A stretch of DNA of 64,000 nt from an uncultured virus (IMG/VR IMGVR_UViG_3300009093_000038) (IMGVR_UViG_3300009093_000038), one strand, 5' to 3'; shown: positions 22,442-45,132, counted from the first letter of the stretch. Program-made: numbers and translations. Notes: generated from the letters alone by a model not told the origin.

Positions 22442-22516
22442 TGGCAGCCTGCTCCGGTTATGCTCCGGCTCCTCTCGGGTCAAAGCCGAGTGCGCTACTG
22501 ATTACGCTATCAGGCC
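22442..22516 (-). tRNA. tRNA-Gln(TTG)
   Basis: Cloverleaf; CTCGG-CTTTGAC-CCGAG arm; encoded CCA. Confidence 0.85.
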
Positions 22517-22615
22517 AAAAAGTACGGATAGCATTGAGTATCTAATTCTGCTGTCTTATAGGGACTGCACAAAAACTAATAACCTACTCAATGCAGTAAA
22601 AACAAAGGGAAAAAC

Positions 22616-23452
22616 ATGAAAGAAAAACTAATCACGTTCGCATCAGCCATCACGCTGTTCGCGGGAATACTCGTCTCAACCGCTCAACCAGTTCCGTGCC
22701 CGGATTGTCCTCCGTGTACGAACTGTCCACCGTACACAAATAATTTTACACCGGCTGAATTTCCAACAAATGCGCTGTTGGTTCGGCAGGCTCAGATCAT
22801 AACGGACGGTACTGTGATCTATGCCGGGAATCCTTGGATACTCGACACGAACAACCTTTTGATGAGCGGCGGAGGTAACTGGACAAGCAACTCACCGACC
22901 AGCACAAATTGGACATACGTCCTGGCCGTAACGAATACGCTACCGGACAGAGTTTACACTATCGAGTACCGGTCGAGCCTAGCTATCACCGGCACAAATA
23001 TAACCGGCTACTTTATCGGGTCTTCAAACGGTATGGAGCTGTTTTTCACCAACACCGTGCCGGGTTTGATAAACAGCGGTTTTTGGCTGGTTGACCAGCA
23101 GCCGGGATTTATTTCTTACGGGATCGGAGCCAGCCGGGCACAGGGCATGGGTCAATTTTTCGGCTGTCCTGGAGCTTATGTTGGTTTCATCGACTTCACG
23201 AATTGGCCGAATACGAAGCGTTTTTATGAAGTCGATACGAACTACGCCACTCATTCAGTGACCGACTTCTATCGTCCCACGAACCACATCCAGCTTTTTT
23301 ATCCCAACGGCGTGGACTGTGCGGTGGGAACAGCCAGCGTGTCGGTGCCAGGAGATTACACGGCGTGGCCATCGGTTTATTTTTTCAACAATTATCCGAC
23401 GAACAAATCGTACTACCTCTGGTTTCAGGGGTTTGTTGAACCCGCTCCGTAA
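22616..23452 (+). CDS. Secreted Thr/Asn-rich hypothetical protein
   Basis: Signal peptide, CPDCPPCTNCPP stretch, followed by a terminator. Confidence 0.7.
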   Translation: MKEKLITFASAITLFAGILVSTAQPVPCPDCPPCTNCPPYTNNFTPAEFPTNALLVRQAQIITDGTVIYAGNPWILDTNNLLMSGGGNWTSNSPTSTNWTYVLAVTNTLPDRVYTIEYRSSLAITGTNITGYFIGSSNGMELFFTNTVPGLINSGFWLVDQQPGFISYGIGASRAQGMGQFFGCPGAYVGFIDFTNWPNTKRFYEVDTNYATHSVTDFYRPTNHIQLFYPNGVDCAVGTASVSVPGDYTAWPSVYFFNNYPTNKSYYLWFQGFVEPAP

Positions 23453-23468
23453 GCGAAACTTTTTCATC

Positions 23469-23499
23469 AACCGACCGGTCGCAAGCCGGTCGGTTTTTT
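23469..23499 (+). terminator. Intrinsic terminator
   Basis: AACCGACCGG-tcgcaag-CCGGTCGGTT plus T-run. Confidence 0.8.
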
Positions 23500-23510
23500 A
23501 TTTTTCAAAT

Positions 23511-23587
23511 TGGTGCCACCCGTGGGATTTGCACCCACTCCCGCCCGGTTAAAAGCCGGATGCTGCATCTATATGAGCTTCGGTGGC
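23511..23587 (-). tRNA. tRNA-Lys(TTT)
   Basis: Anticodon loop CTTTTAA; CCA. Confidence 0.85.
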
Positions 23588-23605
23588 AAAGAAAGTATGT
23601 AGAGC

Positions 23606-24364
23606 ATGAGCAGAAGCGTTAAGTATTACGGCTGGAGGCCAGACGTTCCAGATCATCGCGATTTTCATTACGGCGCTGTCCTTCACGCGGCGGAACAGCT
23701 TCCCATCCCGGACCAGATTGATCTGCGCCCGCTCATGCCGCCAGTTCAAGATCAGGGGGATATTGGTTCCTGCACTGCGCACGCGACAGTGGCCGTCCTG
23801 GAGCATAATATGATCGTGCAGCAGAGGCCGTTCTCCTCTCGGTCGCGCCTGTTCGCCTATTTCAATGCCAGGGCCGCCGAAGGCGCTGAGTCTGGTGACA
23901 ACGGGGCGACGTTGCGTGACATGGTGAGCAGTTTGGCGAGCACAGGCATCTGTGACGAGGACTTGTGGCCGTATGACGTGAGCCAGGTCTTGACCAAGCC
24001 GGTCGATACCTGCTACACGGCGGCGTCTCCGAATAAGATTCGTCTTTATGCGCGCCTGAACTCGCTCGATGACATGCTCGTGTGCCTGGCGGCAGGATTT
24101 CCCTTTATCTTTGGATTCACTGTTTACGAAAAGTTCGAATCCGATGAAGTTGCTCAGAGCGGTATTCTCAGCATTCCGACGTTGGATGAAGCATCGGTCG
24201 GCGGCCACGCTGTCTGCGCGGTTGGGTACGATCGTACCAAGAACATGCTGCTCGTGCGAAATTCCTGGGGTCCTGCGTGGGGCCAGCAGGGCTATTTTTG
24301 GATGCCGTTCGCCTACGCGACAAATCGGAATTTGTCCGATGACTTCTGGACGATCCGGTTGTGA
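23606..24364 (+). CDS. C1 family (papain-like) cysteine protease
   Basis: QGDIGSCTAHA, GGHAV, VRNSWG catalytic motifs. Confidence 0.93.
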   Translation: MSRSVKYYGWRPDVPDHRDFHYGAVLHAAEQLPIPDQIDLRPLMPPVQDQGDIGSCTAHATVAVLEHNMIVQQRPFSSRSRLFAYFNARAAEGAESGDNGATLRDMVSSLASTGICDEDLWPYDVSQVLTKPVDTCYTAASPNKIRLYARLNSLDDMLVCLAAGFPFIFGFTVYEKFESDEVAQSGILSIPTLDEASVGGHAVCAVGYDRTKNMLLVRNSWGPAWGQQGYFWMPFAYATNRNLSDDFWTIRL

Positions 24365-24366
24365 AA

Positions 24367-24450
24367 TGGTGCGCGGAGAGGGAATTGCACCCTCAAGGCT
24401 GACAGGCTCTCGACCTGTACCGTCTTCTATTCCGGTTTAACCACCCGCGC
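24367..24450 (-). tRNA. Atypical tRNA-Leu(GAG)
   Basis: Acceptor and T arm intact, loop TCGAGAG, extra helix, no long variable arm. Confidence 0.7.
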
Positions 24451-24451
24451 A

Positions 24452-24528
24452 TGGTGGACTCGCTCGGGATTGCACCGAGAACCCCCGGCTTATGAGGCCG
24501 ACGCTCTGGCTGGTTGAGCTACGAGTCC
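24452..24528 (-). tRNA. tRNA-CAT (Ile2 or Met)
   Basis: Loop CTCATAA; GGACTCG acceptor is Ile2-like. Confidence 0.85.
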
Positions 24529-24546
24529 TAAATTGTTCTAACCTGC

Positions 24547-25293
24547 ATGAATTTACTCGGTGTTGACGTAGGATTTTCTAAAACGCAGAAAAGCACGGGC
24601 GTTGCTGTTTTCCACAACGACGAGCTGACGGTCTATCGCGCCAACTCCACCTGGGAGGATCGGAAATCCCAACTGCCTGTTGATTTCGTTCCAGAGGCGA
24701 TTGCGATTGATGGGCCTTTACTTCCTGATCTCGTCTTGACGGAATCTGTGCGCCCGTGCGAGCAATTCTTTTCACGCGGCCTGTTTTGCAAGCGGTGTAA
24801 GCCAGGTCTCAGCCACTTTGGAACTGGTTACAGCCTGCGCAGTGCGGCCTTTGATGCCGTCCATCAGTTTGCCGGGCACTGCTACGGTCCAGACTTTCGC
24901 CTGGGTCACGAGATTGCCGAAGCGTTCCCGAACCTTTTTCTCGGAGTCATGGTGGAGGACGGCTGCTATCGGGCGATGCCGAAATTGATTCGCGGCCAGA
25001 AGTTCGACTGGCTTTACGACAACTGTTTGAAAAAGCTCGACCAGCTTCGTGAGTTCGTTCCGCTCACAGAAAAAGTTTACAGTCAGATTCAGGTTGAGAA
25101 CGACCATGAGATGCGCGCCGCCTTGGTTTGCCTGTTGACGGCAGGGCTGGCCGCCAAGAAAACGGCAGTGCGCGCCGGGTGCGATCTCGGCGGTTGGTTT
25201 TGGCTGCCGCCTATGCCGCTATGGGAGCCGTGGGCGATTGAAGCGGCGGAGGCGAACTTTGGGTCATTGCCTCAACCTGCTTCCTCGGAATGA
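24547..25293 (+). CDS. DUF429-like (RNase H-fold) putative nuclease
   Basis: LLGVDVG, IAIDGPL, R..E, AEAFP motifs. Confidence 0.7.
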   Translation: MNLLGVDVGFSKTQKSTGVAVFHNDELTVYRANSTWEDRKSQLPVDFVPEAIAIDGPLLPDLVLTESVRPCEQFFSRGLFCKRCKPGLSHFGTGYSLRSAAFDAVHQFAGHCYGPDFRLGHEIAEAFPNLFLGVMVEDGCYRAMPKLIRGQKFDWLYDNCLKKLDQLREFVPLTEKVYSQIQVENDHEMRAALVCLLTAGLAAKKTAVRAGCDLGGWFWLPPMPLWEPWAIEAAEANFGSLPQPASSE

Positions 25294-25465
25294 TGCACCA
25301 GTCAAGCCCTGGGAATTGAACGGCCACGAACGGGCTGGCCGGATCAGACTTGATCCCTGGGAATTTGATCATCACAACGGAGACCGAAACCAGCTCGCCG
25401 ACCGTGCCCTTTGGCACCAGCGTATCGCCGATCTTGATGGGATATTTTGCTCGGACCTGTTGCAT
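25211..25465 (-). CDS. Small hypothetical protein
   Basis: ATG right after tRNA-Ser; beta-rich sequence; 3' end overlaps the DUF429-like gene. Confidence 0.35.
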   Translation of the reverse strand: MQQVRAKYPIKIGDTLVPKGTVGELVSVSVVMIKFPGIKSDPASPFVAVQFPGLDWCIIPRKQVEAMTQSSPPPLQSPTAPIAA

Positions 25466-25470
25466 AGAAA

Positions 25471-25559
25471 TGGCGGCGGGCGCAGGCTTCGCTCCTGCGT
25501 CGGTGTTACCCGGACTCTCTTTAGCAAAGAGGCACATTACTGGACTCTGTCAGCCCGCC
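25471..25559 (-). tRNA. tRNA-Ser(GCT)
   Basis: Loop TTGCTAA, long variable arm, G73, CCA. Confidence 0.88.
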
Positions 25560-25606
25560 AATTACTAACGAACTACTAATTTGGTATCAATTAGTAGCAA
25601 ATTGAT

Positions 25607-25648
25607 AGTTGGGGAAGAACTCCCGCTCGCGCAGGGTCTTCCCCAACT
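25607..25648 (-). terminator. Stem-loop directly after the Ro60 stop codon
   Basis: AGTTGGGGAAGA...TCTTCCCCAACT inverted repeat; no clear U-tract. Confidence 0.45.
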
Positions 25649-25652
25649 TTGA

Positions 25653-27302
25653 TTAGATGTCACCGCGACAGAAGTCAGCGATGAGCGACGGCGTGGAGGC
25701 GTCGAAACCTACCACGTCGAGCGAACCGGAGTCGTTCGGGTCCGCGATGGTGAACGCGTTGGCCACCATGCCGACTACGACCGAGCGCGCAGCGTTGCCG
25801 CTGGTGCTGCGGTACCGGTTGAGTTCCTGAGCCGGGTGGCTCGAACCCGCGTAGGTCTCGCTGTCGGTCGTTACGACGAACGCGCCGACATCAGCCTTGT
25901 TCTCCCGCGCCCAAACGAACGGGAGCGAGCAGTCGGTGCCTCCGCCGTTGATGCTGTCAGTGAACTTCATGGCGTCCACGAGGCTCATATTCTTGCGAAT
26001 CTTCAGCTCGCGGAAGCCCGTGTCGAAGGCCATCACGTGGATGTTGTCTTCGATGTTCAGGTGGACGAGGGCCAGTGCCGTCTCGGCCTCGCAGCACGAG
26101 AGACACGTTCCCGCCATCTTCTGGGTCATCGAGGCGGACACGTCCAGGCCGAACAGCATCGGCTTGCCGACCGGCTGCACGTTACCGAAGCTGGCGTAGA
26201 ACGCCTGCTCCAGCGCGGCCACGACGGATTGATCTGCTTCCCAGGTCAGCTTGCCCTTCTCGCCGTGCCCCTGGTTGTACACCTTGGAGGCGATCAGGAA
26301 CTGGATCGGATGCACGCGGGACTTCTTCAGCCACTCGGTGTCCTTCAGCTTCTGAACCAGCGACCGGGACGCCTGGGACAGCGGCTTCACGAGACCGACC
26401 GCCGTCATCTTGCCCAGGTTACGGATCATGGCCGTCGCAGGCATCTCTGCCAGCAGCGCTTCCCAGACCTTCACGCTGTTTAGATGCTGCGTCGGAATCG
26501 CTTCGCGGGGCAGGTCGTGCTCCGTGATGAGTGTGATCAGGCGCTTCTCGTCACAGCTCTTGGCTTCCTCGAAGGCTTCGATCAGCTTCGGCAGGCTGTC
26601 CTTGACGGACTCGAAGTTGCGGTCCTTCGGCTCCTTGCCGGGCTGCTTGCGGCCCTTGACGGTGCGGTCACCGAGCGCGTCCTTGCCGCCGACCATCCAG
26701 CGGAAGACTGCGTCCTGGACCTTGTCGTCCGTGCGCGGGTGTGCCAGGCGCAGGAGGTCGGCGTGCGACCATCCATCACGCTGCTGGTATTTGACTGCCT
26801 GCATCGCGAGCTGGTCCACCTTCTTGGAAGTGTACCAGTTGCCCACGGCGCGGCAGAGACCACGGCCCCATCCCCGCTGAGAATTCACATACTGAGCGAA
26901 GTGGAACAGGTGAGTGCCGATGCGTGCGACCTTCGGCAGCGACTCCAGGGCGAATTTCCGCGTTTCCTCGTCCTTGTCCGCGCAGGCCATGGCGAGCGCG
27001 AAAAGAGCAGCTTCATTGCGGTAGGCCAGACCCTTGTCAGAAACTTCGACGATCATCTCGACCGTCTTGCGGCCATTGGCCTTCAGACAGCGCTTGATCA
27101 CGTCGTGGTTTTCCTTCAGGAGGTCCTTCTCCTGGATGTAGTAAGTTCCGCCCTCGGAGCCGAGGATCAGGAACCGGCGAAGACGACCCCAGTCATCGAG
27201 CGCCCAGGAGAATCCGCCTGCGGAGTTCTTGACCTGGTTCGAGTCGGGGATCGGTTCAGTCTGCGGCGTGCGCCGCTTATTCGGTACAGAGTACACTGCC
27301 AT
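25653..27302 (-). CDS. rsr: Ro60 / TROVE-domain RNA-binding protein
   Basis: NSAGGF, RFLILGSEGGTYY, GWGRGLCRAV, KYQQRDGWSHADLLRLAHP, TAMIRNLGKMT, DVSASM vWA MIDAS, GGTDC, DVVGFD. Confidence 0.97.
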   Translation of the reverse strand: MAVYSVPNKRRTPQTEPIPDSNQVKNSAGGFSWALDDWGRLRRFLILGSEGGTYYIQEKDLLKENHDVIKRCLKANGRKTVEMIVEVSDKGLAYRNEAALFALAMACADKDEETRKFALESLPKVARIGTHLFHFAQYVNSQRGWGRGLCRAVGNWYTSKKVDQLAMQAVKYQQRDGWSHADLLRLAHPRTDDKVQDAVFRWMVGGKDALGDRTVKGRKQPGKEPKDRNFESVKDSLPKLIEAFEEAKSCDEKRLITLITEHDLPREAIPTQHLNSVKVWEALLAEMPATAMIRNLGKMTAVGLVKPLSQASRSLVQKLKDTEWLKKSRVHPIQFLIASKVYNQGHGEKGKLTWEADQSVVAALEQAFYASFGNVQPVGKPMLFGLDVSASMTQKMAGTCLSCCEAETALALVHLNIEDNIHVMAFDTGFRELKIRKNMSLVDAMKFTDSINGGGTDCSLPFVWARENKADVGAFVVTTDSETYAGSSHPAQELNRYRSTSGNAARSVVVGMVANAFTIADPNDSGSLDVVGFDASTPSLIADFCRGDI

Positions 27303-27875: not shown

Positions 27876-27883
27876 AAAAAATC

Positions 27884-28027
27884 GCGGGCAAGTTATTAGA
27901 GTCGGAAATCTCCCTTACGGGAGACCGCTGCTCTGCCAGTTGAGCTAACCCCGCCGAGTTTGGGCGGAGTCCTGGAATCGAACCAGGAACCAACGGTTTG
28001 ATAGATAACCAACTACATTCGGCCCGC
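27884..28027 (-). ncRNA. yrlA: Y RNA, YrlA-like (Ro stem plus permuted T-arm/acceptor/D-arm module)
   Basis: GCGGGCCGA...CTTGCCCGC bulged-C stem; GGTTCGATTCC precedes TAGCTCAACTGGCAGAGC. Confidence 0.88.
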
Positions 28028-28341
28028 TAAATTGATGCGCCACGAAGGCGTTCGAGGCGGGGATCGCCGCCACCCGAGCGATAAATCTCGCTTCCAGGGA
28101 TTTCGCTTACGCTGTCGTCTTCATTGGTGATTGTCAGGACCATGCTGTCCTCGTCCCAGGTCCAGCCTTTATCACCGCAGCCTGCGGAGTTGTTGGCGTC
28201 TCGAACCCATTTGGCGATACCGGCTAGTTCCGAGTTCGGGTCTGGTTCCAGGCTGCCCTCAACGCTTTTAGTCAGATCGTCTTCACCAGGAAGATCAGTT
28301 TCCAGCACAAAGCGAACGATTCGATTGATTTCTCCGCGCAC
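28027..28341 (-). CDS. Hypothetical acidic protein
   Basis: GTG start after GTAGTTA; WTWDE segment resembles WDWDG in 49912..50742. Confidence 0.55.
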   Translation of the reverse strand: MRGEINRIVRFVLETDLPGEDDLTKSVEGSLEPDPNSELAGIAKWVRDANNSAGCGDKGWTWDEDSMVLTITNEDDSVSEIPGSEIYRSGGGDPRLERLRGASI

Positions 28342-28540: not shown

Positions 28541-28953
28541 TGGTGGAGATGGCGGGAGTTGAACCCGCGTCCTTGGCGCTAATGCCAGCTACCACTACAC
28601 GCTTATCCGGTCTTTAGAGCAGTCTGGACAGTCCCGGATTCTGTTAATCCAAACAGGCTCGGTTCTTCGTCCCGAAAAGAAGCGCCGATTTGTCCGCTCG
28701 GCACCCACACTTGACCTGCTGTTGCGTTCATCCACCGTAGCAGGAGTCCAGCGGTGAACGTCGAAGCATTTAAGCTACGAGGTCGGCTTCAACATAGCCG
28801 AACTGAGCAAGGATCGCGTCAGCTTCGGCCAGGGAAGGAGCCATTTCATTTGCGTTAGCATTTGAGTTTTGATGAGAGGATTAACGTGGCCAACCCATCA
28901 TCCACGGCGTGCGGTTTCAGTCACTAACACTAAGTCGAAACCAGTACATCCCC
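28541..28953 (-). ncRNA. ssrA: tmRNA
   Basis: 5' GGGGATGTACTGGTTTCGAC; 3' GGGTTCAACTCCCGCCATCTCCACCA; G3-U70; tag ORF 28859..28770. Confidence 0.95.
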
Positions 28954-29355: not shown

Positions 29356-29432
29356 TGGTAGCGGGGGTTGGATTTTAACCAACGACCTCCAGGTTATGAG
29401 CCTAGCGAGCTAACAGGCTGCTCCACCCCGCA
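29356..29432 (-). tRNA. Initiator-like tRNA-fMet(CAT)
   Basis: TGCGGGGTGGAGCAGCC 5' end, 1-72 mismatch, loop CTCATAA. Confidence 0.88.
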
Positions 29433-29517: not shown

Positions 29518-29601
29518 TGGTCGCGGTCGAGAGAATTGCACTCTCAAGGCTCACTGTTTTTGAAACAGGCCCCTCTGCTGTTCGGGGTAAACCAGACCGC
29601 G
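29518..29601 (-). tRNA. Atypical tRNA-Leu(CAA)
   Basis: Loop TTCAAAA; extra GGTTTA/TGAGCC helix; CCA. Confidence 0.7.
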
Positions 29602-29602: not shown

Positions 29603-29678
29603 TGGTACTCCAGGTCGGGGTTGCACCGACAACGCACGGGCTTTAAGGCCGTCGCCTCTGCTGTTGGGCTACTGGAGC
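29603..29678 (-). tRNA. tRNA-Leu(TAA), short variable loop
   Basis: Loop CTTAAAG; CCA. Confidence 0.8.
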
Positions 29679-30271: not shown

Positions 30272-30347
30272 TGGTACCGGGAACAGGAATCGCACCTGCA
30301 ACATCTGGTTCCTAAGACCAGCGCCTCTGCTATTGGGCTACCCCGGC
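30272..30347 (-). tRNA. tRNA-Leu(TAG), short variable loop
   Basis: CTGGT-CTTAGGA-ACCAG; CCA. Confidence 0.85.
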
Positions 30348-30352: not shown

Positions 30353-30436
30353 TGGTCGCCGCGAGACGAATTGCACGTCCAAGGCTCACTGATTCTGAAT
30401 CAGGCTCGTCTGCTGTTCCGAGTAAACCACGCGGCG
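30353..30436 (-). tRNA. Atypical tRNA-Leu(CAG)
   Basis: Loop TTCAGAA; extra GGTTTA/TGAGCC helix; CCA. Confidence 0.7.
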
Positions 30437-30438: not shown

Positions 30439-31635
30439 CTAAGAAGTTTCTTCGACTGCTGGAAAGGTTTTTATCGCGGCAGCGAGCGTCGATCGTACCT
30501 GGCCGAAGCGATGGGTCGCACACCAATACCAGGTTTTGCCGTTCACCACTGACTTGCGAATGGCGGGCGTTGCTGCGCCGTCGAGACCGTGGTGCCAGAC
30601 TGCGCCAGCTTTCATCACCTGAGATCGTTCTGCCGGATCGAGCTGACGAGTGTGCTTTTTCAGCGTCTTGATCTCGGGAGATTCGTTCAGCCGGGATTCC
30701 GCAAACGAAACTTCATCGGGATTCTCCGGGGGATGGTCGTGAACAGTGTAGCCGAGCTTCTGGAAAACCAGCTTCGTCTTTTCGTGCCATTTCTCAGGGT
30801 CATTCGGATCACCGTGGACCAGTTCAACCGTGCGCTTGTTTTTGTCGATGTGATAGACCTGGCCGGTGGCCGGAACGACCCACTCAGCTTCTGACCGGAG
30901 CGTGCGGAGCATGTTATTGAACCAGGCCAGCACGTGCGGCGAGGGTTCCCATCCTTCCATCGTCTCCAGGAGGAAATCTGCGAACGGAAAGTTTGCCGAT
31001 TCTTTTACTTCGCCGGTGTTCTTCTTCACGCTGACTGCTTTATCGTCCCACAGCTCGATCATGTGATGGTCCTTCAGATTGGTGATTTCGAGGTCCGGCA
31101 GTTCATTGTCCTTCAGCCATTTCTTGATGGCGTTGACTGACTTCTCATCATCTGCCCGAGCTGTGAAAATTTTGACTTTCTTTCCGTGGCCGACCCACCG
31201 GCGAATGCGCGCCACCATTTTTGGCACCGGTTCACCGATCTTCGTGGCTCCCTTGTAACCGGTGTATTTCGCCAGGGTGCCGTCGAGATCGACGCCGATC
31301 CAGCCTTCTTCGTCCTCGCTGTCCAGGAGCGCTGACACGATGGATTCCGCAGCTCCAACAATGCTTTGATTCTTGACCGGAAAGTAAGTCAATACCTTTC
31401 GACCGGATGTATCAGAGATGTGCCAGCCTTCACTGTCGAGAACTACAGGCATTCCCAGTCGGTGCGGCCAGGTGAGATGGGATGTGAAATCTTTGGTTTT
31501 GAAAATGGCCTCTTTCGGTGTGTTTTCCAGCACCGTTACTTCTTCCGGCGCGCTTGCACGTGGGTTCACGTGGTTCGTCCTGATCCAGCGACTGCCGGGC
31601 AGCATTGCTTTCTTGAACTCTGAGGCAAAATTCAT
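30439..31635 (-). CDS. Multidomain protein with HAD-superfamily (PNKP phosphatase-like) domain
   Basis: WIGVDLDGTLA, IFTAR, LWDDKA motifs. Confidence 0.75.
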   Translation of the reverse strand: MNFASEFKKAMLPGSRWIRTNHVNPRASAPEEVTVLENTPKEAIFKTKDFTSHLTWPHRLGMPVVLDSEGWHISDTSGRKVLTYFPVKNQSIVGAAESIVSALLDSEDEEGWIGVDLDGTLAKYTGYKGATKIGEPVPKMVARIRRWVGHGKKVKIFTARADDEKSVNAIKKWLKDNELPDLEITNLKDHHMIELWDDKAVSVKKNTGEVKESANFPFADFLLETMEGWEPSPHVLAWFNNMLRTLRSEAEWVVPATGQVYHIDKNKRTVELVHGDPNDPEKWHEKTKLVFQKLGYTVHDHPPENPDEVSFAESRLNESPEIKTLKKHTRQLDPAERSQVMKAGAVWHHGLDGAATPAIRKSVVNGKTWYWCATHRFGQVRSTLAAAIKTFPAVEETS

Positions 31636-31653: not shown

Positions 31654-31730
31654 TGGCGCTCCGAGCAGGACTTGCACCTGCAACCTTCGGTTTCGAAGAC
31701 CGCCGCTCTGTCTCTTTGAGCTACCGGAGC
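31654..31730 (-). tRNA. tRNA-Arg(TCG)
   Basis: Loop CTTCGAA; CCA. Confidence 0.87.
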
Positions 31731-32450: not shown

Positions 32451-32525
32451 TGGTGGAGACAACAGGAGTTGCACCTGAAACCTTCCGCGTGTCGAGCGGG
32501 TGCTCTACTTCAGAGCTATGCCTCC
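32451..32525 (-). tRNA. tRNA-Val(GAC)
   Basis: Loop TCGACAC (C33); CCA. Confidence 0.83.
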
Positions 32526-33934: not shown

Positions 33935-34010
33935 TGGAGCCAGTCGCAGGAATTGCACCCGCCGTCTCCCGATTACAAGTCGGGCGCATCGCTGTCAATG
34001 CTTGACTGGC
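33935..34010 (-). tRNA. tRNA-Thr(TGT)
   Basis: CCCGA-CTTGTAA-TCGGG; CCA. Confidence 0.87.
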
Positions 34011-34347: not shown

Positions 34348-34423
34348 TGGTGGGCCGCCTCGGTAATGCTCCGAGTTCTCCGGGGTAAAAGCCCGGTTCT
34401 TCGCTTTTCAAAGTTTGCAGCCC
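34348..34423 (-). tRNA. tRNA-Lys(TTT), second divergent copy
   Basis: CCGGG-CTTTTAC-CCCGG; CCA. Confidence 0.83.
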
Positions 34424-34429: not shown

Positions 34430-34505
34430 TGGTGCGTTGGGTCGGCAATGATCCGACACGCTTCCGGGTAAGAACCGGGTGCTCTGCCAGTTGAGCTACC
34501 AACGC
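34430..34505 (-). tRNA. tRNA-Lys(CTT)
   Basis: Loop TTCTTAC; CCA. Confidence 0.87.
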
Positions 34506-34651: not shown

Positions 34652-34726
34652 TGGTCGCTCCGGGTGGACACGATCCACCGACCTTCAGCTTATGAAGCTG
34701 CTGCTCTCCCTCTGAGCTACGGAGCG
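34652..34726 (-). tRNA. tRNA-CAT (elongator Met or Ile2)
   Basis: Loop TTCATAA; CCA. Confidence 0.85.
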
Positions 34727-34794: not shown

Positions 34795-34870
34795 TGGAGC
34801 CTGCTGACGGAATTGCACCGTCCATTACCCGGTTACCGACCGGGGCCACCGCTGTCTGTGGGTAGCAGGC
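34795..34870 (-). tRNA. tRNA-Thr(GGT)
   Basis: CCCGG-TCGGTAA-CCGGG (C33); CCA. Confidence 0.8.
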
Positions 34871-35276
34871 TTTCGAGAGGTTCGATGACGACATCGGCCT
34901 CGACTGTAAAAATTGGAATGACCTCCTGGAACTTTGCCGCCTTCAGCATGTCATTGCTGTATCGTGCCTCGACACCGTCAGCGACCGAGATCGTAATGTG
35001 CGGAAATTGATTTTCACTTTTCGCGCCAACCAGGACGGCTTGGGCTTTTTCATCGGAAGCGAATCCGAATACCGGTATCCGCAGGCGCTCACCTTCCAGG
35101 CTTTTATAGCGCTCCAGCGTTTGCGCGTCCGGTTTGAAGGCCATCGTGACGTGGTGTGCGTAAACAACCGCGTGCTGCGGTGGAAAACGGCGCAGCAGCT
35201 CTTGGTGGCTTTCCGGCGTCAGCACGGCACTGATGAATACGCCAGGTTCGTTCAGAGGTAATCGTTCGGTTGACAT
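34833..35276 (-). CDS. 2H phosphoesterase (2',3'-cyclic phosphodiesterase-like)
   Basis: Two HxT motifs, HHVTMAF and PHITISV. Confidence 0.8.
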   Translation of the reverse strand: MSTERLPLNEPGVFISAVLTPESHQELLRRFPPQHAVVYAHHVTMAFKPDAQTLERYKSLEGERLRIPVFGFASDEKAQAVLVGAKSENQFPHITISVADGVEARYSNDMLKAAKFQEVIPIFTVEADVVIEPLESLLPTDSGGPGR

Positions 35277-35491: not shown

Positions 35492-35566
35492 TGGTGCGCC
35501 ATGTCGGTGCTGCCCCGACTTATCCTGTTTGGAAGACAGGCTCCTTAGCTGTTGGGATAATGGCGC
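35492..35566 (-). tRNA. tRNA-Gly(TCC)
   Basis: CCTGT-CTTCCAA-ACAGG; CCA. Confidence 0.83.
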
Positions 35567-36323: not shown

Positions 36324-36399
36324 TGGAGGCCGGTATCAGAATTGCACTGATGTAATGCGGTTTTGCAGACCGCTGCCTTGCTTCTCGAACCAACCGGCC
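36324..36399 (-). tRNA. tRNA-Cys(GCA)
   Basis: GCGGT-CTGCAAA-ACCGC; U73, CCA. Confidence 0.88.
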
Positions 36400-36403: not shown

Positions 36404-36479
36404 TGGAGCCTCCGGTCAGAATTGCACTGACCATCTCCAGTTTACGAAACTGGCGCACCGCTGGCTGTGCGTCGGAGGC
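36404..36479 (-). tRNA. tRNA-Thr(CGT)
   Basis: CCAGT-TTCGTAA-ACTGG; CCA. Confidence 0.85.
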
Positions 36480-36483: not shown

Positions 36484-36557
36484 TGGTACCCCGTGACGGA
36501 ATCTCACCGCCTCCATCACTTTGTAAGAGTGAGGCACTGATGTTATGCAAACGGGGC
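36484..36557 (-). tRNA. tRNA-Val(TAC)
   Basis: TCACT-CTTACAA-AGTGA; CCA. Confidence 0.83.
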
Positions 36558-36562: not shown

Positions 36563-36693
36563 TGGCGGGGATGATAACCGTTAAATATCGGTCCGTAAAC
36601 GGACAAGGAGGTTCCAACGACTATTTGAGACTGGATTCGAACCAGCGACCTCCCGCTTTTCAGGCGGGCGCTCTACCGCTGAGCTACATCCCC
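36563..36693 (-). ncRNA. tRNA(GAA)-Y RNA chimera
   Basis: Complete cloverleaf with CCA; 56-nt insert after the T arm holding a permuted Ro stem CTTGTCCG-TTTA-CGGACCGA. Confidence 0.8.
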
Positions 36694-36699
36694 ATAAAA

Positions 36700-36776
36700 T
36701 GGTGCTCCAAACAGGACTCGCACCTGTGACCTTTGGCTTCGCAGACCAACGCTCTATCTAACTGAGCTACTGGAGC
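36700..36776 (-). tRNA. tRNA-Arg(GCG)
   Basis: Loop CTGCGAA; CCA. Confidence 0.85.
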
Positions 36777-36782: not shown

Positions 36783-36859
36783 TGGTACTCGCGGCTGGAA
36801 TCGCACCAGCGGCCTGTTCCTTCGGAGAGAACCGCTCTGTCTAACTGAGCTACGCGAGC
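36783..36859 (-). tRNA. tRNA-Arg(CCG)
   Basis: Loop CTCCGAA; CCA. Confidence 0.87.
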
Positions 36860-36961: not shown

Positions 36962-37039
36962 TGGTATCCGTGACCGGACTTGCACCGGTTAGGCCCTGCT
37001 TGAAGGGCAGGATGCGCGAGCTGCTTTGCATTCACGGAC
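36962..37039 (-). tRNA. tRNA-Glu(TTC)
   Basis: CCTGC-CCTTCAA-GCAGG (C33); CCA. Confidence 0.8.
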
Positions 37040-37085: not shown

Positions 37086-37162
37086 TGGCGTCCCTGGCGG
37101 GGTACGATCCCGCAGTCTTCTGGTTGAGAACCAGATATGCTGACCAGTTGCACCACAGGGAC
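37086..37162 (-). tRNA. tRNA-Glu(CTC)
   Basis: TCTGG-TTCTCAA-CCAGA; CCA. Confidence 0.87.
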
Positions 37163-37315: not shown

Positions 37316-37392
37316 TGGTCCCAGGGGTCGGTATCGCACCGACGTACTCCGGTTTTTCAGACCGGCGCTAATACTATCTCAGCTACCCTGGG
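37316..37392 (-). tRNA. tRNA-Phe(GAA)
   Basis: CCGGT-CTGAAAA-ACCGG; CCA. Confidence 0.87.
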
Positions 37393-37446: not shown

Positions 37447-37520
37447 TGGTCCCCTATCGTGGTAACGCTCCACGGTCAACCGCTTATCAAGCGGACGCTC
37501 TGCTTTTGAGCTAATAGGGG
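37447..37520 (-). tRNA. tRNA-Ile(GAT)
   Basis: Loop TTGATAA; CCA. Confidence 0.85.
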
Positions 37521-38971: not shown

Positions 38972-39060
38972 TGGCGGATGGTGCAGGAGTTCCACCTGCG
39001 CTGCCCGTGGGGCAGTCCACCGCTTTCGAGGCGGGAGCCTTGGTACTCGGCCAACCATCC
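38972..39060 (-). tRNA. tRNA-Ser(CGA)
   Basis: Loop CTCGAAA, long variable arm, CCA. Confidence 0.87.
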
Positions 39061-39066: not shown

Positions 39067-39198
39067 TGACGGGCAAGTATCGCAGAGGATGTTTTAGCGC
39101 TTTACCGTTAAGCTATCCCGGCACAAAGCCGGGACTGGGATTCGAACCCAGAACTCCTCATTTTCCAGTGAGATAACCCTCCAACATTCGGCCCGTCA
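39067..39198 (-). ncRNA. yrlA: Y RNA, YrlA-like
   Basis: TGACGGGCCGA...GGTTATC; GGGTTCGAATCCC then TAGCTTAACGGTAAAGC; CTTGCCCGTCA. Confidence 0.88.
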
Positions 39199-39203: not shown

Positions 39204-39343
39204 TTTGGTGGACAAGTAGCGGCGACGGTGTTTTAGGTGCTCTACCGTTAAGCTACTCTGCGGTCTGTGGTCGCAGAGCAAGGATTCGAACCTCGACAAC
39301 CCGCTTTATGATGCGATAACCATCATCCAGTCGGCCCACCAAA
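39204..39343 (-). ncRNA. yrlA: Y RNA, YrlA-like
   Basis: TTTGGTGGGCCGA...GGTTATC; AGGTTCGAATCCT then TAGCTTAACGGTAGAGC; CTTGTCCACCAAA. Confidence 0.88.
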
Positions 39344-39431: not shown

Positions 39432-39521
39432 TGGCGGATGGTGCAAGCTTCGCTCTTGCGCAGGTGTGACCCTGATCTCTGCCTTCCAAGCAGGTGCCTT
39501 GCTGGACTCGGCCAACCATCC
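39432..39521 (-). tRNA. tRNA-Ser(GGA)
   Basis: Loop TTGGAAG, long variable arm, CCA. Confidence 0.87.
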
Positions 39522-39537: not shown

Positions 39538-39625
39538 TGGCGGAGGGCACAGGAGTTCAACCTGTTCTGGTTTGACCCAGGCGTCGAGTTTCAAGCTCGC
39601 CCCGTTAGCGTTCCGGCAGCCCTCC
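39538..39625 (-). tRNA. tRNA-Ser(TGA)
   Basis: Loop CTTGAAA, long variable arm, CCA. Confidence 0.87.
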
Positions 39626-39668: not shown

Positions 39669-40130
39669 ATGGCAACCGCAGAAATTAAAGAAACGCAGCA
39701 TTCTGAAACACTCGCGTATCGGCTGTTGGAAAGATTTTCGTCCGAACGCGAGCAGGTTGAACGGTACACCGCTGTCGCTGAATTTTGTCCGATTCCTGCG
39801 TTTGTTGTAGCCCACGACGGCAGGACCGTCGTTTATGTCAACAAAGCTTATTACGACATGATGGGCGTCACACCGGAAGAAGGAAAGAATCTCCAGTGGA
39901 AAAAATCCATTCACCCTGATGACATAAACCGCGTGGTCTGGGAATGGGAGCACATGATCGAGACCGAGCAGCCGCTTCATTCCGAACGCCGGTACATTGA
40001 TCACACCGGCCACGAATTCAGCGCAACGCTGGTAGCGCGCCGGGTCGAGAACAACGGTTTTGTCGGCTTCATCGTGCCTCACGAAATCAGCAGAGTGGTG
40101 CCCTCGGCAGGATTCTCACCTGCAACCTGA
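39669..40130 (+). CDS. Stand-alone PAS domain protein
   Basis: VYVNKAYYDMMGVTPEE...WKKSIHPDD PAS signature. Confidence 0.85.
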   Translation: MATAEIKETQHSETLAYRLLERFSSEREQVERYTAVAEFCPIPAFVVAHDGRTVVYVNKAYYDMMGVTPEEGKNLQWKKSIHPDDINRVVWEWEHMIETEQPLHSERRYIDHTGHEFSATLVARRVENNGFVGFIVPHEISRVVPSAGFSPAT

Positions 40131-40171
40131 GTTTTAGGAAAACCCCGCGCTGTAATTTGCGCCACGAGGGC
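40096..40171 (-). tRNA. tRNA-Arg(CCT)
   Basis: Loop TTCCTAA; CCA; overlaps the 3' end of the PAS gene antisense. Confidence 0.83.
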
Positions 40172-40175: not shown

Positions 40176-40251
40176 TGGTGCTCTCGGCTGGAATCTCACC
40201 AGCGACATCCCGCTTAGAAGGCAGGCACTCTGATAACTGAGCTACGAGAGC
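40176..40251 (-). tRNA. tRNA-Arg(TCT)
   Basis: Loop CTTCTAA; CCA. Confidence 0.87.
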
Positions 40252-40257: not shown

Positions 40258-40332
40258 TGGCTCCAGGAGTTGGACTCGCACCAACACTAAACCGCTTAAC
40301 AGGCGGACGTGCTACTTTAACACTACCCTGGA
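40258..40332 (-). tRNA. tRNA-Asn(GTT)
   Basis: TCC start, loop CTGTTAA, G73, CCA. Confidence 0.88.
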
Positions 40333-40407
40333 TGGCAGCCCCGACTGGTTATGCTCCAATGCCTTTCGAGTCAGAGTCGAACGCGCTGCTGATTACGCTA
40401 CGGGGCC
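40333..40407 (-). tRNA. tRNA-Gln(CTG)
   Basis: TTCGA-CTCTGAC-TCGAA; CCA. Confidence 0.87.
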
Positions 40408-40416: not shown

Positions 40417-40492
40417 TGGTCGGGATGGTCGGGTACGATCCGACAACCTCCGGGTCCCAAACCCGGCGCGCTGCCAATTACGCCACATCCCG
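40417..40492 (-). tRNA. tRNA-Pro(TGG)
   Basis: CCGGG-TTTGGGA-CCCGG; CCA. Confidence 0.9.
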
Positions 40493-40840: not shown

Positions 40841-40917
40841 TGGTCAGTGTGGTGGGCTTCGATCCCACAGCCTCGTGTACCCGAAACACGCGCTCTACCA
40901 GGTTGAGCTACACACTG
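40841..40917 (-). tRNA. tRNA-Pro(CGG)
   Basis: CGTGT-TTCGGGT-ACACG; CCA. Confidence 0.9.
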
Positions 40918-40925: not shown

Positions 40926-41000
40926 TGGTCGGGACGGTGAGGATTGCACTCACGATCTCCAGCACCCCATGCTGGCGCGTTACTGCTTCGCTACGCCCCG
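40926..41000 (-). tRNA. tRNA-Pro(GGG)
   Basis: CCAGC-ATGGGGT-GCTGG; CCA. Confidence 0.9.
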
Positions 41001-41003
41001 GAG

Positions 41004-41135
41004 CTGATGAGCAAGTGGCAGGAAGGGAGATACACCGATCAAAGATCGGCTGCCTTACCAATCGGCGGTCATCTCCACGAAAGAGATGACAGGATTCGAA
41101 CCTGTTATAGATAACCCTCACTTACGGCTCATCAG
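41004..41135 (-). ncRNA. Y-like RNA with permuted tRNA module that keeps an anticodon-like arm
   Basis: CTGATGAGCCG...GGTTATC; T arm, closed acceptor hairpin, D arm, CCGATC-TTT-GATCGG; CTTGCTCATCAG. Confidence 0.8.
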
Positions 41136-41138: not shown

Positions 41139-41215
41139 TGGCGGGACTGACCGGACTCGCACCGGCTTACTTGGTCGTGACAGGACCCTGATTCGACTCC
41201 TTCATCTTCAGCCCC
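41139..41215 (-). tRNA. tRNA-Asp(GTC)
   Basis: Loop CTGTCAC; G73, CCA. Confidence 0.85.
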
Positions 41216-41221: not shown

Positions 41222-41303
41222 TGGCGTGAGGGGATGGACTTGAACCACCGACCTCCCGATGCCGGTTAAGGCACCAGGTGCTCTTTCACTGAGCTACCCC
41301 CAC
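41222..41303 (-). tRNA. tRNA-like RNA with extended anticodon stem, identity undetermined
   Basis: Canonical D and T arms and CCA; 9-bp anticodon stem with loop TTAACC. Confidence 0.7.
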
Positions 41304-41308: not shown

Positions 41309-41394
41309 TGGTGCGCCAGGCAAGACTTGCACTTGCGAAGCCCGAAGGCAAGGGATTTACAGTCCCTCGGTTTTGCTGCTCCCACCACTGGCGC
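41309..41394 (-). tRNA. tRNA-Tyr(GTA)
   Basis: AGGGA-CTGTAAA-TCCCT, long variable arm, CCA. Confidence 0.9.
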
Positions 41395-41496: not shown

Positions 41497-41934
41497 ATGA
41501 ATATCACTGAAAATACCGGTATCGCGAATCTGGCTGAGGTTGAAGGAAATATCCTTCGTGGCGGCCAGCCGAATGCCGCAGGTTGGGACTTTCTTAAAAC
41601 CTCCGGTATTACGCGTGTGATAAAATTGAATTTGGATGGCGATTCACCGGATAAGCCCGGCGACGGCACCGAGCTGGTGAAGTGTCCCATTGATCTCGCG
41701 GATCAGATTATTTTCAGACCGAACTACGATCTGGTCATGCAGGCCGTCAACGCCATCCAGCCGGGCACCTTCATTCACTGCACGCACGGCCAGGATCGCA
41801 CGGGTCTCGTGGTGGGTTGCTACCGCGTGTTGAAGCAGGGTTGGACGAAAGATGCGGCTTGGGCGGAAATGCTCCAGCACGGGTTTCATACTGAACTGCT
41901 TGGCCTCACTCTCTTTTGGGAGTGGGCGATCTGA
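41497..41934 (+). CDS. Tyrosine/dual-specificity phosphatase family protein
   Basis: RGGQP and HCTHGQDRTG (CX5R) motifs. Confidence 0.9.
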   Translation: MNITENTGIANLAEVEGNILRGGQPNAAGWDFLKTSGITRVIKLNLDGDSPDKPGDGTELVKCPIDLADQIIFRPNYDLVMQAVNAIQPGTFIHCTHGQDRTGLVVGCYRVLKQGWTKDAAWAEMLQHGFHTELLGLTLFWEWAI

Positions 41935-42023: not shown

Positions 42024-42099
42024 TGGCACGGCGGGTCGGCAATGATCCGACAACCTTCGGTTTTGGAGACCGGTGCTCTGCCAGTTGAGCTACCGCCGT
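42024..42099 (-). tRNA. tRNA-Trp(CCA)
   Basis: Loop CTCCAAA; G73, CCA. Confidence 0.9.
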
Positions 42100-43001: not shown

Positions 43002-43144
43002 AGTGGAAAGAACTGAACGAGGCTTTGGGGCGCAGTGTATTCTGCCAAAGCGTTGATGTGGAGTTCATCGTCAGGCTGTGGGAACGCCTAGCCAATACAG
43101 GGGACTCCTTTTCCATCCGTGACCGTGTTTCAGGCTCGCTCAAA

Positions 43145-43270
43145 TGGTGGACCTTGCGGAAATCGCATCCGCTCGGCGCGCCCCCGTAGGGAAGCGCGCC
43201 TTTCTCTGGCCGGTCGCAAGCGGAGTGATTACCGCTGCCTTGATCGGTTTTATGCGCCGGATGAAGGCCC
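43145..43270 (-). ncRNA. Alanine-acceptor tRNA-like RNA (126 nt)
   Basis: GGGCCTT/AAGGTCC-A-CCA with G3-U70, T arm; no standard D or anticodon arm. Confidence 0.65.
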
Positions 43271-43279
43271 GAAAGGGAG

Positions 43280-43618
43280 GCGTGCGGCGGGGGTCGAACC
43301 CGCTCCCCCAGATAAGTGTCATCGTCCGGGATTTAGTGCGGCTTCCCTTGGCCAACCAGCCCTGTGACACAAGAACTGGCCAGTTGTAGCCGCCACAGCC
43401 ATACGAAGGTGCTGCTGCCAGCCTTTTGGGCCAGCGTCTTCTTCCCGCTCACGCCCAGACCAGGTCTCAGCTCACCTGGGCGCTTATGGACTTGAAGCAA
43501 CAGTTATCCCCACCGGACACCTGGTCTAAGACCGCCAGGCGCTATGTGCCGAGGCCCCGTGTCCCTGCGCAGAAACACAAGGCAAATGCCGTACCGGCTC
43601 AGAAGGATAACCCGCAGC
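43280..43618 (-). ncRNA. Unclassified ~340-nt structured RNA ending in a T arm
   Basis: 5' GCTGCGG can pair with 3' CCGCAcGC; GCGGG-TTCGACC-CCCGC; many internal hairpins. Confidence 0.5.
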
Positions 43619-43623
43619 ATAAA

Positions 43624-43702
43624 TGGTGGAGAGCACGGGAATTGCACCCGTCTGAAATTCTCATTGCAAGTGAGACGACCACGCTAAGCAGTCCCGCTCC
43701 CC
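43624..43702 (-). tRNA. tRNA-Ala(TGC)
   Basis: G3-U70; TCTCA-CTTGCAA-TGAGA; CCA. Confidence 0.87.
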
Positions 43703-44584
43703 TTAAAGTGTCGCGATGAACGCGTCGATCAAGTCTGATGAATCGGCCACGCATTTCGCTGCCGCTGCTTTCAAGTTGGCGATGTCATCGTCAGATGCAC
43801 CGTCAATCGGCAGTGGCTGGTCGAGACGTGGAGAAATGCGAACATAACCGCCTTTCGTCATCAGTCGTTTCAAAATGTAATCCGGCAGATCGTCGTTGGC
43901 GTCGAACAGCAGGCTCAGTGTTTCCAGGCCGGTGTGGAGCAGACCGCTGTCCACGAGTTTGTCCGCTGAAAATTTGCTCTGGGCCTGGCCGCATCCAACC
44001 GAAAAGATGTTGAGTGATTCGCCGGGCCAGTCACGGATGGCTTCAGCCGCCGCGCACGCTGCCGGATTGTTGGCGACGTTGCCGCCATCCCAGAGTTGTT
44101 TATTGTCCAGGATGAAGGCCGGGAAGTAGGTCTGCGCTGCTGACGTGGCTCGGGATACCTGCCAGAGCGCGTAATCGTCATCCATCACCGGCGACTTGAA
44201 AAAGTAAGGATCGTAGGAGACCAGGTCGAACGCCGGAACGAGCAGAAACTTTTTCAGATCGGAGAGACGGGTGTTGCCCAGGCGCGCCTTGAGGCAGTCT
44301 TCGATCTTGTTTGATCCGTAGCGGGCTTCGAAAATACCGTCGTGTCCAAAAATACGTTCGTGACCGAAGATCGTCGGACCATCCACTGTGAAAAACTCCA
44401 GGGCTTCAGTCGCTGACTTGCCGGAAGCGAGCAAGCAGGCCAGGATGCCGCCGATGGAGGTTCCGGCGAACATATCGAACATGTCGAAGCAAGCTTTGCC
44501 GGTGCGCTTTTCCAGCTCAACCAGGACGGAGCAGGGGATGTAACCCTTCATGCCGCCGCCATCAATGGACAGGATGTTCTTCAT
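43703..44584 (-). CDS. Patatin-like phospholipase
   Basis: DGGGMKG, GTSIG, SAAQTYF, DGG motifs. Confidence 0.92.
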   Translation of the reverse strand: MKNILSIDGGGMKGYIPCSVLVELEKRTGKACFDMFDMFAGTSIGGILACLLASGKSATEALEFFTVDGPTIFGHERIFGHDGIFEARYGSNKIEDCLKARLGNTRLSDLKKFLLVPAFDLVSYDPYFFKSPVMDDDYALWQVSRATSAAQTYFPAFILDNKQLWDGGNVANNPAACAAAEAIRDWPGESLNIFSVGCGQAQSKFSADKLVDSGLLHTGLETLSLLFDANDDLPDYILKRLMTKGGYVRISPRLDQPLPIDGASDDDIANLKAAAAKCVADSSDLIDAFIATL

Positions 44585-44600
44585 GTCCTATTTACGAAAG

Positions 44601-44674
44601 TGGTGCGGGCGGACGGTAATGCTCCGTCGTCTCAGCGTTGGCAACGCCGTGTTCTGCTATTAAACCACGCCCGC
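44601..44674 (-). tRNA. tRNA-Gly(GCC)
   Basis: Loop TTGCCAA; CCA. Confidence 0.87.
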
Positions 44675-44679
44675 AGAAA

Positions 44680-45033
44680 TTAAGGAACGATATGGAGCAT
44701 CATCGGCGCTCCAGGGTATGCAAATGAGATTGTGTCCGACAGATCGCTGTGGAGGCCGGTTGTCGGGTCCTGGGCGTCCACGTTGCACCAGTAAGTCATT
44801 CCACTTACCAGGTTGCTGACGACCGCATTGGTATCGGTGACCGGAACAATCTGGATGGCCCCGTTGGTGCCGGTGCCTGCCGGATTGTTCGTGTAAATGT
44901 AAACGTTGTACGTGAGTACCGGAAAATCGTCATTCGTGGAGGAGTTCCATTGGACATGGACGCTCTTGGCCATGGCGACGATGGCGGTGATTAGGATCGC
45001 TCCTATAAGCATTGTTTTGCGTAATGTCTTCAT
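44680..45033 (-). CDS. Secreted fibronectin type III domain protein
   Basis: Signal peptide; VQWN, YNVY, VSNLVSGMTYWCNVDA. Confidence 0.75.
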   Translation of the reverse strand: MKTLRKTMLIGAILITAIVAMAKSVHVQWNSSTNDDFPVLTYNVYIYTNNPAGTGTNGAIQIVPVTDTNAVVSNLVSGMTYWCNVDAQDPTTGLHSDLSDTISFAYPGAPMMLHIVP

Positions 45034-45055
45034 GCCCTACATACGCAGTCTGAAA

Positions 45056-45132
45056 TGGGGTGTCGTACGGGTTTCGATCCCGTTCTGCAAGTTTCACAAA
45101 CTTGGGTGCTAAGCCATCACACTCACGACACC
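45056..45132 (-). tRNA. tRNA-His(GTG)
   Basis: G-1/C73 pair; CAAGT-TTGTGAA-ACTTG. Confidence 0.88.

Follow-up and report, generated by a model that had tools for sequence, protein, structure and literature searches.

Introduction

The T-psi-C loop (T-loop) of tRNA is treated as nearly invariant. Phage tRNAs that evade nucleases are known, and the T5 tRNA that resists PARIS is reportedly altered at the nuclease site, in its anticodon arm. Here we analyse an array of 43 tRNA genes from an uncultured virus (IMG/VR IMGVR_UViG_3300009093_000038), none of which keeps the canonical TTC at T-loop positions 54-56. The array lies in bases 1-64000 (the window) of the virus record, termed G000, which comprises 143,414 bases and is estimated to be 83% complete.

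Phage tRNAs that evade anticodon nucleases are replacement tRNAs altered at the nuclease site, to which the present set may be compared; however, the anticodon arm of single isotypes is changed in them, whereas here the T-loop of a whole set is changed, and T-loop terms have no occurrence in the accessible text of that report (PMC10264068). Two unrelated enzymes cut in the T-loop itself. CbCash, a CRISPR-associated Schlafen (Cash), cuts tRNAs mainly at the UUC motif of the T-loop, 5' of U55, and fails to cleave when U54 or U55 alone is changed (PMC13462974). The Cash filament engages the T-loop and the anticodon loop at once, and some anticodon loops are cut by it as well; its authors left open whether phage tRNAs are targeted (PMC13462974). 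The UUC that Cash targets is what the tRNAs of the window are without, but Cash comes from Chloroflexi type III CRISPR loci (PMC13462974), whereas the presumed host of the phage is a Verrucomicrobiota bacterium. The second enzyme, CdiA-CT E479, cleaves the T-loop between T and pseudouridine but is an interbacterial toxin (PMC9086364). In staphylococci, the non-proteogenic tRNA-Gly has TGC or TGT in place of TTC; there, three Gly isoacceptors are diverted to cell-wall synthesis, whereas the phage carries a whole translation set (PMC7826273).

L-arrays, exemplified by the trn operon of Anabaena PCC 7120 with its HNH gene all8564, resemble the window in the long tRNA cluster and in the adjoining HNH gene of the same family (PMC8421152). 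RNA-repair partners are a further likeness: Ro60 and YrlA in the phage, and RtcB beside its bacterial relatives. However, TTC is present in 21 of the 23 tRNAs of the Anabaena operon (this count, like those given below for other reference clusters, the genome G001, the L-numbered loci, the neighbours of 31 bacterial arrays and the GC range, required A58, so that A54-T58 tRNAs were dropped and the TTC share is overstated), and no T-loop rewrite is reported in the accessible text (PMC8421152). Precedents exist for arrays that combine tRNAs with HNH and repair genes, for the evasion of anticodon nucleases by phage tRNAs, and for TGC in the T-loop of staphylococcal non-proteogenic tRNA-Gly. Our literature search, whose scope left out most subscription papers, preprint supplements and image tables, found no description of whole tRNA sets without UUC.

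Results

tRNA genes were called in the window by ARAGORN with default settings, by ARAGORN with relaxed settings and by a motif scan. The default output held 30 tRNAs and the transfer-messenger RNA (tmRNA), and only 29 of the 43 ordinary tRNAs were recovered. The relaxed run and the motif scan together gave exactly 43 ordinary tRNAs, all on the minus strand between 22442 and 45131 and each with an encoded CCA. The T-loop counts given here, and those below for the phage family, the TTC-share groups and the ATC-pattern scan, include only tRNAs whose stems are strict and whose CCA is encoded, and some tRNAs are missed. At bases 54-56 we found TGC in 22 tRNAs, AGC and ATC in seven each, TGA in three, and TTA, TTG, TGG and GGC in one each; TTC was found in 0/43. 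Position 54 or 55 is changed in 41 of the 43, and the remaining two are altered at 56. The closing pair G53-C61 is kept in 42/42 parsed tRNAs and is also visible in the 43rd.

The D-loop changes together with the T-loop. A18-G19 is present in 28 of the 30 tRNAs with G55/C56, and the D-loop GG is retained in all seven ATC types, which have T55. A56 is paired with T19 in tRNA-fMet, tRNA-Val(TAC) and tRNA-Arg(TCT), the register of tRNA-Arg(CCT) being ambiguous, and G56 is paired with C19 in tRNA-Ser(CGA) and tRNA-Ser(TGA). In a permutation test, the dinucleotide at 18-19 was predicted from 55-56 and sought at any allowed D-loop position, with no manual numbering. The prediction fits 41/43 tRNAs (shuffle mean 23.0, sd 2.25, maximum 32), and 0/5000 shuffles reach 41. 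The two misfits are tRNA-Leu(GAG) and tRNA-Leu(CAG), whose D-loops were inspected and are both atypically folded. A first-pass annotation of this DNA had already described the complete avoidance of TTC and all of these D-loop partners, and had proposed a covariation check at 18/55 and 19/56; every one of these points holds. In addition, position 58 tracks position 54 (T-A 28, A-T 10, A-A 4, G-G 1), and this is a third elbow pair beyond the two of that annotation. The pairs 54/58, 18/55 and 19/56 are key elbow contacts (PMC7912444). Among 2192 distinct array tRNAs, which are related and not independent, the D-loop has AG in 769 of 841 TGC types and GG in 750 of 779 TTC types. The partner changes at 58, 18 or 19 likely keep the tRNA elbow folded.

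Within 21-46 kb there are eight perfect TTC T-arms, and none belongs to an ordinary tRNA. They are those of the tmRNA, four YrlA-like RNAs, an acceptor-less chimera, an odd tRNA at 41222 and one unannotated RNA; the first-pass annotation was thus right that the YrlA-like RNAs, the chimera, the tmRNA and the 41222 tRNA keep TTC. Genome-wide, GTTCGA occurs 128 times against 120.5 expected, so it is not depleted. Mutation bias cannot explain the loss of TTC from the ordinary tRNAs while other RNAs keep it.

The 43 genes look like working tRNAs. The set spans all 20 amino acids plus an initiator type, and simple wobble reads every sense codon except ATA, GCT and GCC; a CAT tRNA with lysidine (Ile2) could read ATA, and superwobble by UGC could read GCT and GCC. 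The tRNAs have the canonical cloverleaf (RF00005), with paired acceptor, anticodon and T stems, CCA, and 7/7 acceptor pairs in nearly all; TTC with G18-G19 is found in 0/43. In 16 of 40 tRNAs (three atypical Leu tRNAs being excluded), the nearest canonical body is that of the same amino acid (shuffle mean 2.3, maximum 8), and therefore the tRNAs are not copies of one odd ancestor. The base pair 49-65 is G-C in 28/43, and the set differs from the staphylococcal tRNA-Gly type, which has a single amino acid and a T-stem weak for EF-Tu, with the pairs A49-U65, U50-A64 and A51-U63. G51-C63 is present in 8/43 tRNAs of the window versus 14/26 housekeeping tRNAs of the bacterial genome G001, and it is low in TTC array tRNAs also (0.43 against 0.34).

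No close isolated phage was found for G000 (best blastn cover 3%), and many of its genes are common to a family of uncultured phages of 170-240 kb. TTC is found in 1/24 tRNAs of G006, 0/25 of G011, 3/16 of G012, 0/36 of G007, 1/37 of G013, 6/38 of G014, 0/39 of G015, 3/31 of G032 and 4/39 of G024; all ten array-bearing family members counted avoid it. Most comparison loci were chosen by the TGC pattern, whereas G024 came from a core-gene search and not from T-loop selection. Pattern counts had made G024 and G025 appear to be canonical relatives, and this was rejected when full parsing showed wholesale avoidance of TTC. The T-loops of G024 are ATC in 23 tRNAs, TTG in six, TTA in three, TCC in two and ATT in one, with GG kept where U55 is kept. 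Since G024 avoids TTC mainly via A54 and not via G55, the UUC motif itself, and not the gain of one new structure, seems to be what selection is directed at; this main argument comes from one unselected lineage. The same isotype takes different substitution routes in different family members. A scan for the ATC pattern found wholesale avoidance in 1/58 groups only, and avoidance by way of A54 is therefore partial in most cases. Among the phages, the trait is conserved over a GC range of 47-68%. The near-complete G022 (93%) and G026 (89%) have two and one tRNA matches, respectively, and no HNH match; since they carry so few tRNAs, the array is an accessory module.

One tRNA class of the family is canonical throughout. 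An amber (CUA) tRNA with GG and TTC is encoded outside the window at G000:82640-82714 (L001:19640-19714), on the minus strand, and adjoins a gene for a PTH2 peptidyl-tRNA hydrolase. A CUA tRNA with TTC is also present in G013, G014, G024 and G032. Of the members for which no array was found, G023 and G029 have a lone CUA tRNA and G026 has a lone UUA tRNA. The stop-codon tRNA is the sole tRNA class that the family consistently leaves canonical.

Arrays without TTC also occur in bacteria. Pattern scans for tandem TGC tRNAs gave about 200 stretches from viruses and about 860 from prokaryotes (a tool estimate). Among deduplicated groups with at least eight tRNAs, which were selected for TGC, a TTC share of 20% or less was found in 15/57 viral and 29/36 genomic groups. 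Titles assign 28 of 31 low-TTC genomic groups to Verrucomicrobiota, and 7/300 sampled Verrucomicrobiota genomes show three or more clustered matches; the arrays are therefore sporadic in this phylum. In the Nibricoccus genome G001, all 26 dispersed housekeeping tRNAs that were fetched have TTC, and its two arrays have it in 1/27 and 1/21. These two arrays, L327 and L405, are paralogous and separated by about 35 kb; each is accompanied by an HNH gene, a LysR regulator and a sigma factor of the FliA type. The neighbours of the 31 bacterial low-TTC arrays include HNH in 24, RtcB in 13, Ro60 in 11 and an SPFH protein in eight. Gene clusters 1, 2 and 5, considered as specific to TTC-less arrays, were rejected as off-frame shadows of the HNH gene. 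In four reference clusters, 89-100% of the tRNAs have TTC (the Anabaena trn operon, Tunturi_5 with 28/30, S-CRM01 with 22/22 and pACHL01 with 34/38).

The tRNA genes are as follows, all on the minus strand. TGC is found in tRNA-Lys(TTT), second copy (23511..23587), tRNA-Leu(GAG) (24367..24450, atypical D-arm), a tRNA(CAT) that is Ile2-like by inference (24452..24528), tRNA-Leu(CAA) (29518..29601), tRNA-Leu(TAA) (29603..29678), tRNA-Leu(TAG) (30272..30347), tRNA-Leu(CAG) (30353..30436, atypical D-arm), tRNA-Arg(TCG) (31654..31730), tRNA-Val(GAC) (32451..32525), tRNA-Thr(TGT) (33935..34010), tRNA-Thr(GGT) (34795..34870), tRNA-Cys(GCA) (36324..36399), tRNA-Thr(CGT) (36404..36479), tRNA-Arg(GCG) (36700..36776), tRNA-Arg(CCG) (36783..36859), tRNA-Glu with anticodon TTC (36962..37039), tRNA-Phe(GAA) (37316..37392), tRNA-Asn(GTT) (40258..40332), tRNA-Pro(GGG) (40926..41000), tRNA-Asp(GTC) (41139..41215), tRNA-Tyr(GTA) (41309..41394) and tRNA-Ala with anticodon TGC (43624..43702, G3-U70 kept). 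AGC is found in tRNA-Gln(TTG) (22442..22516) and tRNA-Lys(TTT) (34348..34423), both with A54-T58, and in tRNA-Ser(GCT) (25471..25559), tRNA-Ile(GAT) (37447..37520), tRNA-Ser(GGA) (39432..39521), tRNA-Gln(CTG) (40333..40407) and tRNA-Gly(GCC) (44601..44674). The ATC types are tRNA-Lys(CTT) (34430..34505, GG kept, A54-T58), elongator-type tRNA-Met(CAT) (34652..34726), tRNA-Glu(CTC) (37086..37162), tRNA-Pro(TGG) (40417..40492), tRNA-Pro(CGG) (40841..40917), tRNA-Trp(CCA) (42024..42099) and tRNA-His(GTG) (45056..45131, C73). TGA is found with A18-T19 in tRNA-Val(TAC) (36484..36557) and tRNA-Arg(TCT) (40176..40251), and also in tRNA-Arg(CCT) (40096..40171). The single types are initiator-type tRNA-fMet (29356..29432, TTA with T19), tRNA-Ser(TGA) (39538..39625, TTG with G18-C19), tRNA-Ser(CGA) (38972..39060, TGG with A18-C19) and tRNA-Gly(TCC) (35492..35566, GGC, G54-G58). 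A long variable arm is missing from all five Leu tRNAs (24367-30436), and three of them have unusual D-arms.

The RNAs that keep TTC are likewise on the minus strand. The tmRNA (28541..28953) encodes a long, acidic tag of 29 residues, and the tag of the relative G022 is similarly long. Ro60 is the protein partner of YrlA RNAs, and a Ro60/Rsr gene with TROVE and vWA domains lies at 25653..27302 on the minus strand. The permuted tRNA mimics are at 27925..28042 (TTC and GG kept, Rfam E 0.0019), 39067..39194 (E 3.4e-4) and 39207..39341 (E 0.42). They have the YrlA architecture, with a permuted tRNA-like domain in which the T-arm precedes the D-arm, near the Ro60 gene; we call them YrlA-like because their scores against RF02553 (34.8, 32.3 and 24.1 bits) fall below its gathering score of 69. 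A fourth Y-RNA-like RNA (41003..41135) was recognised by eye from its paired ends and a TTC T-arm followed by a D-arm-like hairpin. This RNA and another Y-RNA-like RNA at 28367-28535 contain the stem GAGGGTTATC, and Rfam gave no YrlA match for either; comparable elements with a TTC T-arm after them are found again in the arrays of relatives. The acceptor-less tRNA mimic with a GAA anticodon (36623..36694) keeps GG and TTC, and its 3' acceptor strand is missing. Its counterpart in the relative G006 also follows tRNA-Arg(GCG) (L585, near 11363), and from this shared position the mimic looks purposeful. The odd tRNA (41222..41303) keeps TTC; its anticodon stem is predicted to have 9 bp and carries a 6-nt loop with TTA. 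Two hairpin-rich, gene-free stretches of the minus strand, 43100-43620 (with a perfect TTC T-arm near 43299) and 28960-29350, gave no Rfam family above threshold and possibly hold undescribed non-coding RNAs.

The array is adjoined by the gene for the HNH endonuclease P0001 (21276..21848, minus strand, 190 aa), in which D120, H121, N135 and N144 are kept and three of the four Zn cysteines are lost. Its predicted fold (pLDDT 95) has matches among DNase HNH domains only, of the Cas9 type and others, and these cover about one third of the protein. P0001 is a member of the all8564 family (31% identity to the HNH of pCC7120delta, E 2e-12). The array also matches L-arrays, which are dense clusters of about 20 or more co-oriented tRNA genes on a mobile element: a single strand of the virus record carries all 43 tRNAs. 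When a tree was built from TGC-selected loci, P0001 grouped with low-TTC arrays in a supported clade. When loci were selected by HNH, however, Zn-less homologues were found beside canonical arrays, with TTC in 8/9 tRNAs of L415, 9/9 of L417, 10/12 of L425, 15/15 of L427, 16/18 of L460 and 15/15 of L470. The HNH proteins of canonical and TTC-less arrays share their catalytic residues, and no diagnostic active-site difference between them was found. This control weakens HNH as a sufficient cause of TTC loss, and P0001 is best read, from these comparisons, as the usual array companion. Array HNH proteins have been proposed to be homing endonucleases (PMC8421152). Among 15-18 phage records, several of them partial, gene sharing revealed no family-wide nuclease besides HNH. 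The gene after HNH (20052-21206) was considered as a nuclease and rejected, as it resembles PcfJ-like proteins. Two genes might take part in RNA end healing: one for a protein with a HAD/polynucleotide-kinase-like phosphatase domain (30439..31635, minus strand) and one for a dual-specificity/PTP-type phosphatase (41497..41934, plus strand). A 2H cyclic-phosphodiesterase-like protein is encoded at 34833..35276 on the minus strand (weak Pfam match, E 2e-4).

G000 encodes PolA, an NAD ligase, RecA, DnaB and baseplate proteins. Run X1 is possibly the source sample, and its Logan contigs reproduce the window stretch with 0-1 differences per piece; the stretch is therefore not mis-assembled. The host of the phage is inferred to be a Verrucomicrobiota bacterium because the Atlas clusters closest to the array HNH are mostly of that phylum; the Ro60 matches agree, the best 120 including three with taxon names, all Verrucomicrobia. 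A polyvalent protein of 1383 aa with InPase, ART-PolyVal, peptidase C39 and SH3-like domains is encoded at L002:4685-8836. Genes for glycosyltransferases, methyltransferases, PAPS-reductase and GDP-sugar functions are numerous at 1170-14916 and 56988-63742 of the window and in L004, which suggests DNA or surface modification.

Discussion

The first-pass annotation had proposed that the elbow was rewired under selection to escape a nuclease. Selection on an intact, rewired elbow is strongly supported: three pairs covary, the routes differ between relatives, and the sequence that was lost is the target of a published T-loop nuclease. Escape is our best reading of this selection. We think it somewhat probable that the tRNAs lost TTC to escape a host RNase that needs U54-U55-C56. 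This is favoured because the lost motif is the one that Cash requires, which is present in 0/43 tRNAs, and because 41/43 alter position 54 or 55. U54, U55 or C56 is replaced in every tRNA, usually with a change of the partner base at 58, 18 or 19; the compensated elbow would likely stay folded, while the UUC site for a host T-loop RNase would probably be removed. After the host tRNAs are cut, phage translation could continue on a complete UUC-free set. Such a scheme supposes that a UUC-reading RNase, which need not be a Schlafen, acts in the host and that the phage tRNAs are charged and resist it. The tmRNA and YrlA-like RNAs may keep TTC for reasons of their own, and they might be spared if the enzyme needs an anticodon arm.

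Several observations weigh against escape from a host RNase. Schlafen PF04326 is present in just one of five array-bearing Verrucomicrobiota genomes, and Verrucomicrobia are not named in the text-format supplementary files of the Cash study. A single change of C56 is not reported for Cash in the accessible text (PMC13462974). The tmRNA, which must be charged, keeps TTC, and the anticodon loops of the window tRNAs contain TC in 22/43 and TTC in 12/43. Among relatives, G014 keeps TTC in 6/38 tRNAs, and G024 keeps it in seven chargeable array tRNAs (four Leu, Tyr, Ser and Cys) by a T-arm scan, versus three plus the amber tRNA by strict parsing. Only one lineage (G024/G025) entered the comparison unselected by the TGC pattern. 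Finally, TruB has the site 53-GUUYRANYC-61 (PMC7912444), which the same changes remove; therefore any reader of the T-arm fits equally.

The nuclease might instead be the phage's own, with the array HNH or another phage enzyme acting as a T-loop RNase that destroys host tRNAs and the array serving as an immune replacement set. Total avoidance of TTC suits such a self-made threat. HNH, with its catalytic D-H-N-N kept, accompanies the array in each of the ten family members that have one, whereas none was found in the array-less G022 and G026, and it is the commonest neighbour of bacterial TTC-less arrays. However, the same Zn-less subfamily with the same catalytic residues stands beside the six canonical arrays above, the Anabaena homologue adjoins an operon of mostly TTC tRNAs, and the fold matches DNase-type domains only. 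No Schlafen PF04326 or CdiA-type tRNase (PF18664) domain was found in the 83%-complete G000, and no Schlafen domain in five relatives; PF18664 was also found in 0/20 array-bearing genomes, a search in which no control genome matched either. The first-pass suggestion of a phage enzyme that destroys host tRNA is weakened accordingly, and we regard it as unlikely, as we do an altered HNH specificity within a subclade. To a similarly small degree we entertain a broader scheme: an undescribed, broad T-loop tRNase, possibly the Zn-less HNH itself, would act while the whole tRNA pool is swapped for the UUC-free set, acceptor-less and Ro60-bound TTC mimics would serve as decoys (a role that the first-pass annotation had suggested for TTC-bearing mimics), and the canonical stop-codon tRNA would be a fuse, stopping readthrough when the nuclease is set off.

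A little less likely again is an elbow that is independent of modification. A18-G55 and the 54/58 swaps would fold without 5-methyluridine 54, pseudouridine 55 and 2'-O-methylguanosine 18, so that tRNAs made in a burst work at once. Every variant of the window breaks the TruB consensus (PMC7912444), A18-G55 recurs in most TGC tRNAs of other arrays, and L-arrays are induced by translational stress (PMC8421152). However, the stress-induced Anabaena array keeps TTC, and this explanation does not account for the acceptance of every route that removes UUC, including A54 with G18-U55 in G024 and A56-U19.

Pressure on the DNA, by a homing endonuclease, an integrase or a CRISPR nuclease with a TTC protospacer-adjacent motif that targets tRNA genes at the T-loop, is improbable. 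HNH flanks the array, and T4 SegB prefers cutting within tRNA genes (cited in PMC8421152); but the eight perfect TTC T-arms persist in the same region, GTTCGA is not depleted, and 60-91 GGTTCRANTCC sites are present in host chromosomes that have this HNH. That the tRNAs are non-ribosomal or decaying is very improbable: the staphylococcal non-proteogenic tRNA-Gly with TGC or TGT T-loops is a precedent (PMC7826273) and G51-C63 is rarer than in the G001 housekeeping tRNAs, but this pair is low in TTC array tRNAs too, the trait is conserved over a wide GC range, and the set is complete for the 20 amino acids plus an initiator, with stems intact, CCA and identity elements present and compensation at three pairs.

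In conclusion, the present analysis adds the covariation of 54 with 58, an A54 route reached convergently inside a single family, a control in which loci were selected by HNH, and a stop-codon tRNA that consistently stays canonical. UUC-free sets are under-annotated, because standard finders miss about a third of the genes. These whole natural tRNA sets with three covarying alternatives map what the elbow tolerates, and the rewired tRNAs are ready substrates for the question left open for Cash, that of T-loop nucleases versus phage tRNAs. The arrays also lead us to predict that Verrucomicrobiota, or phages of this phylum, encode a T-loop RNase yet to be discovered.

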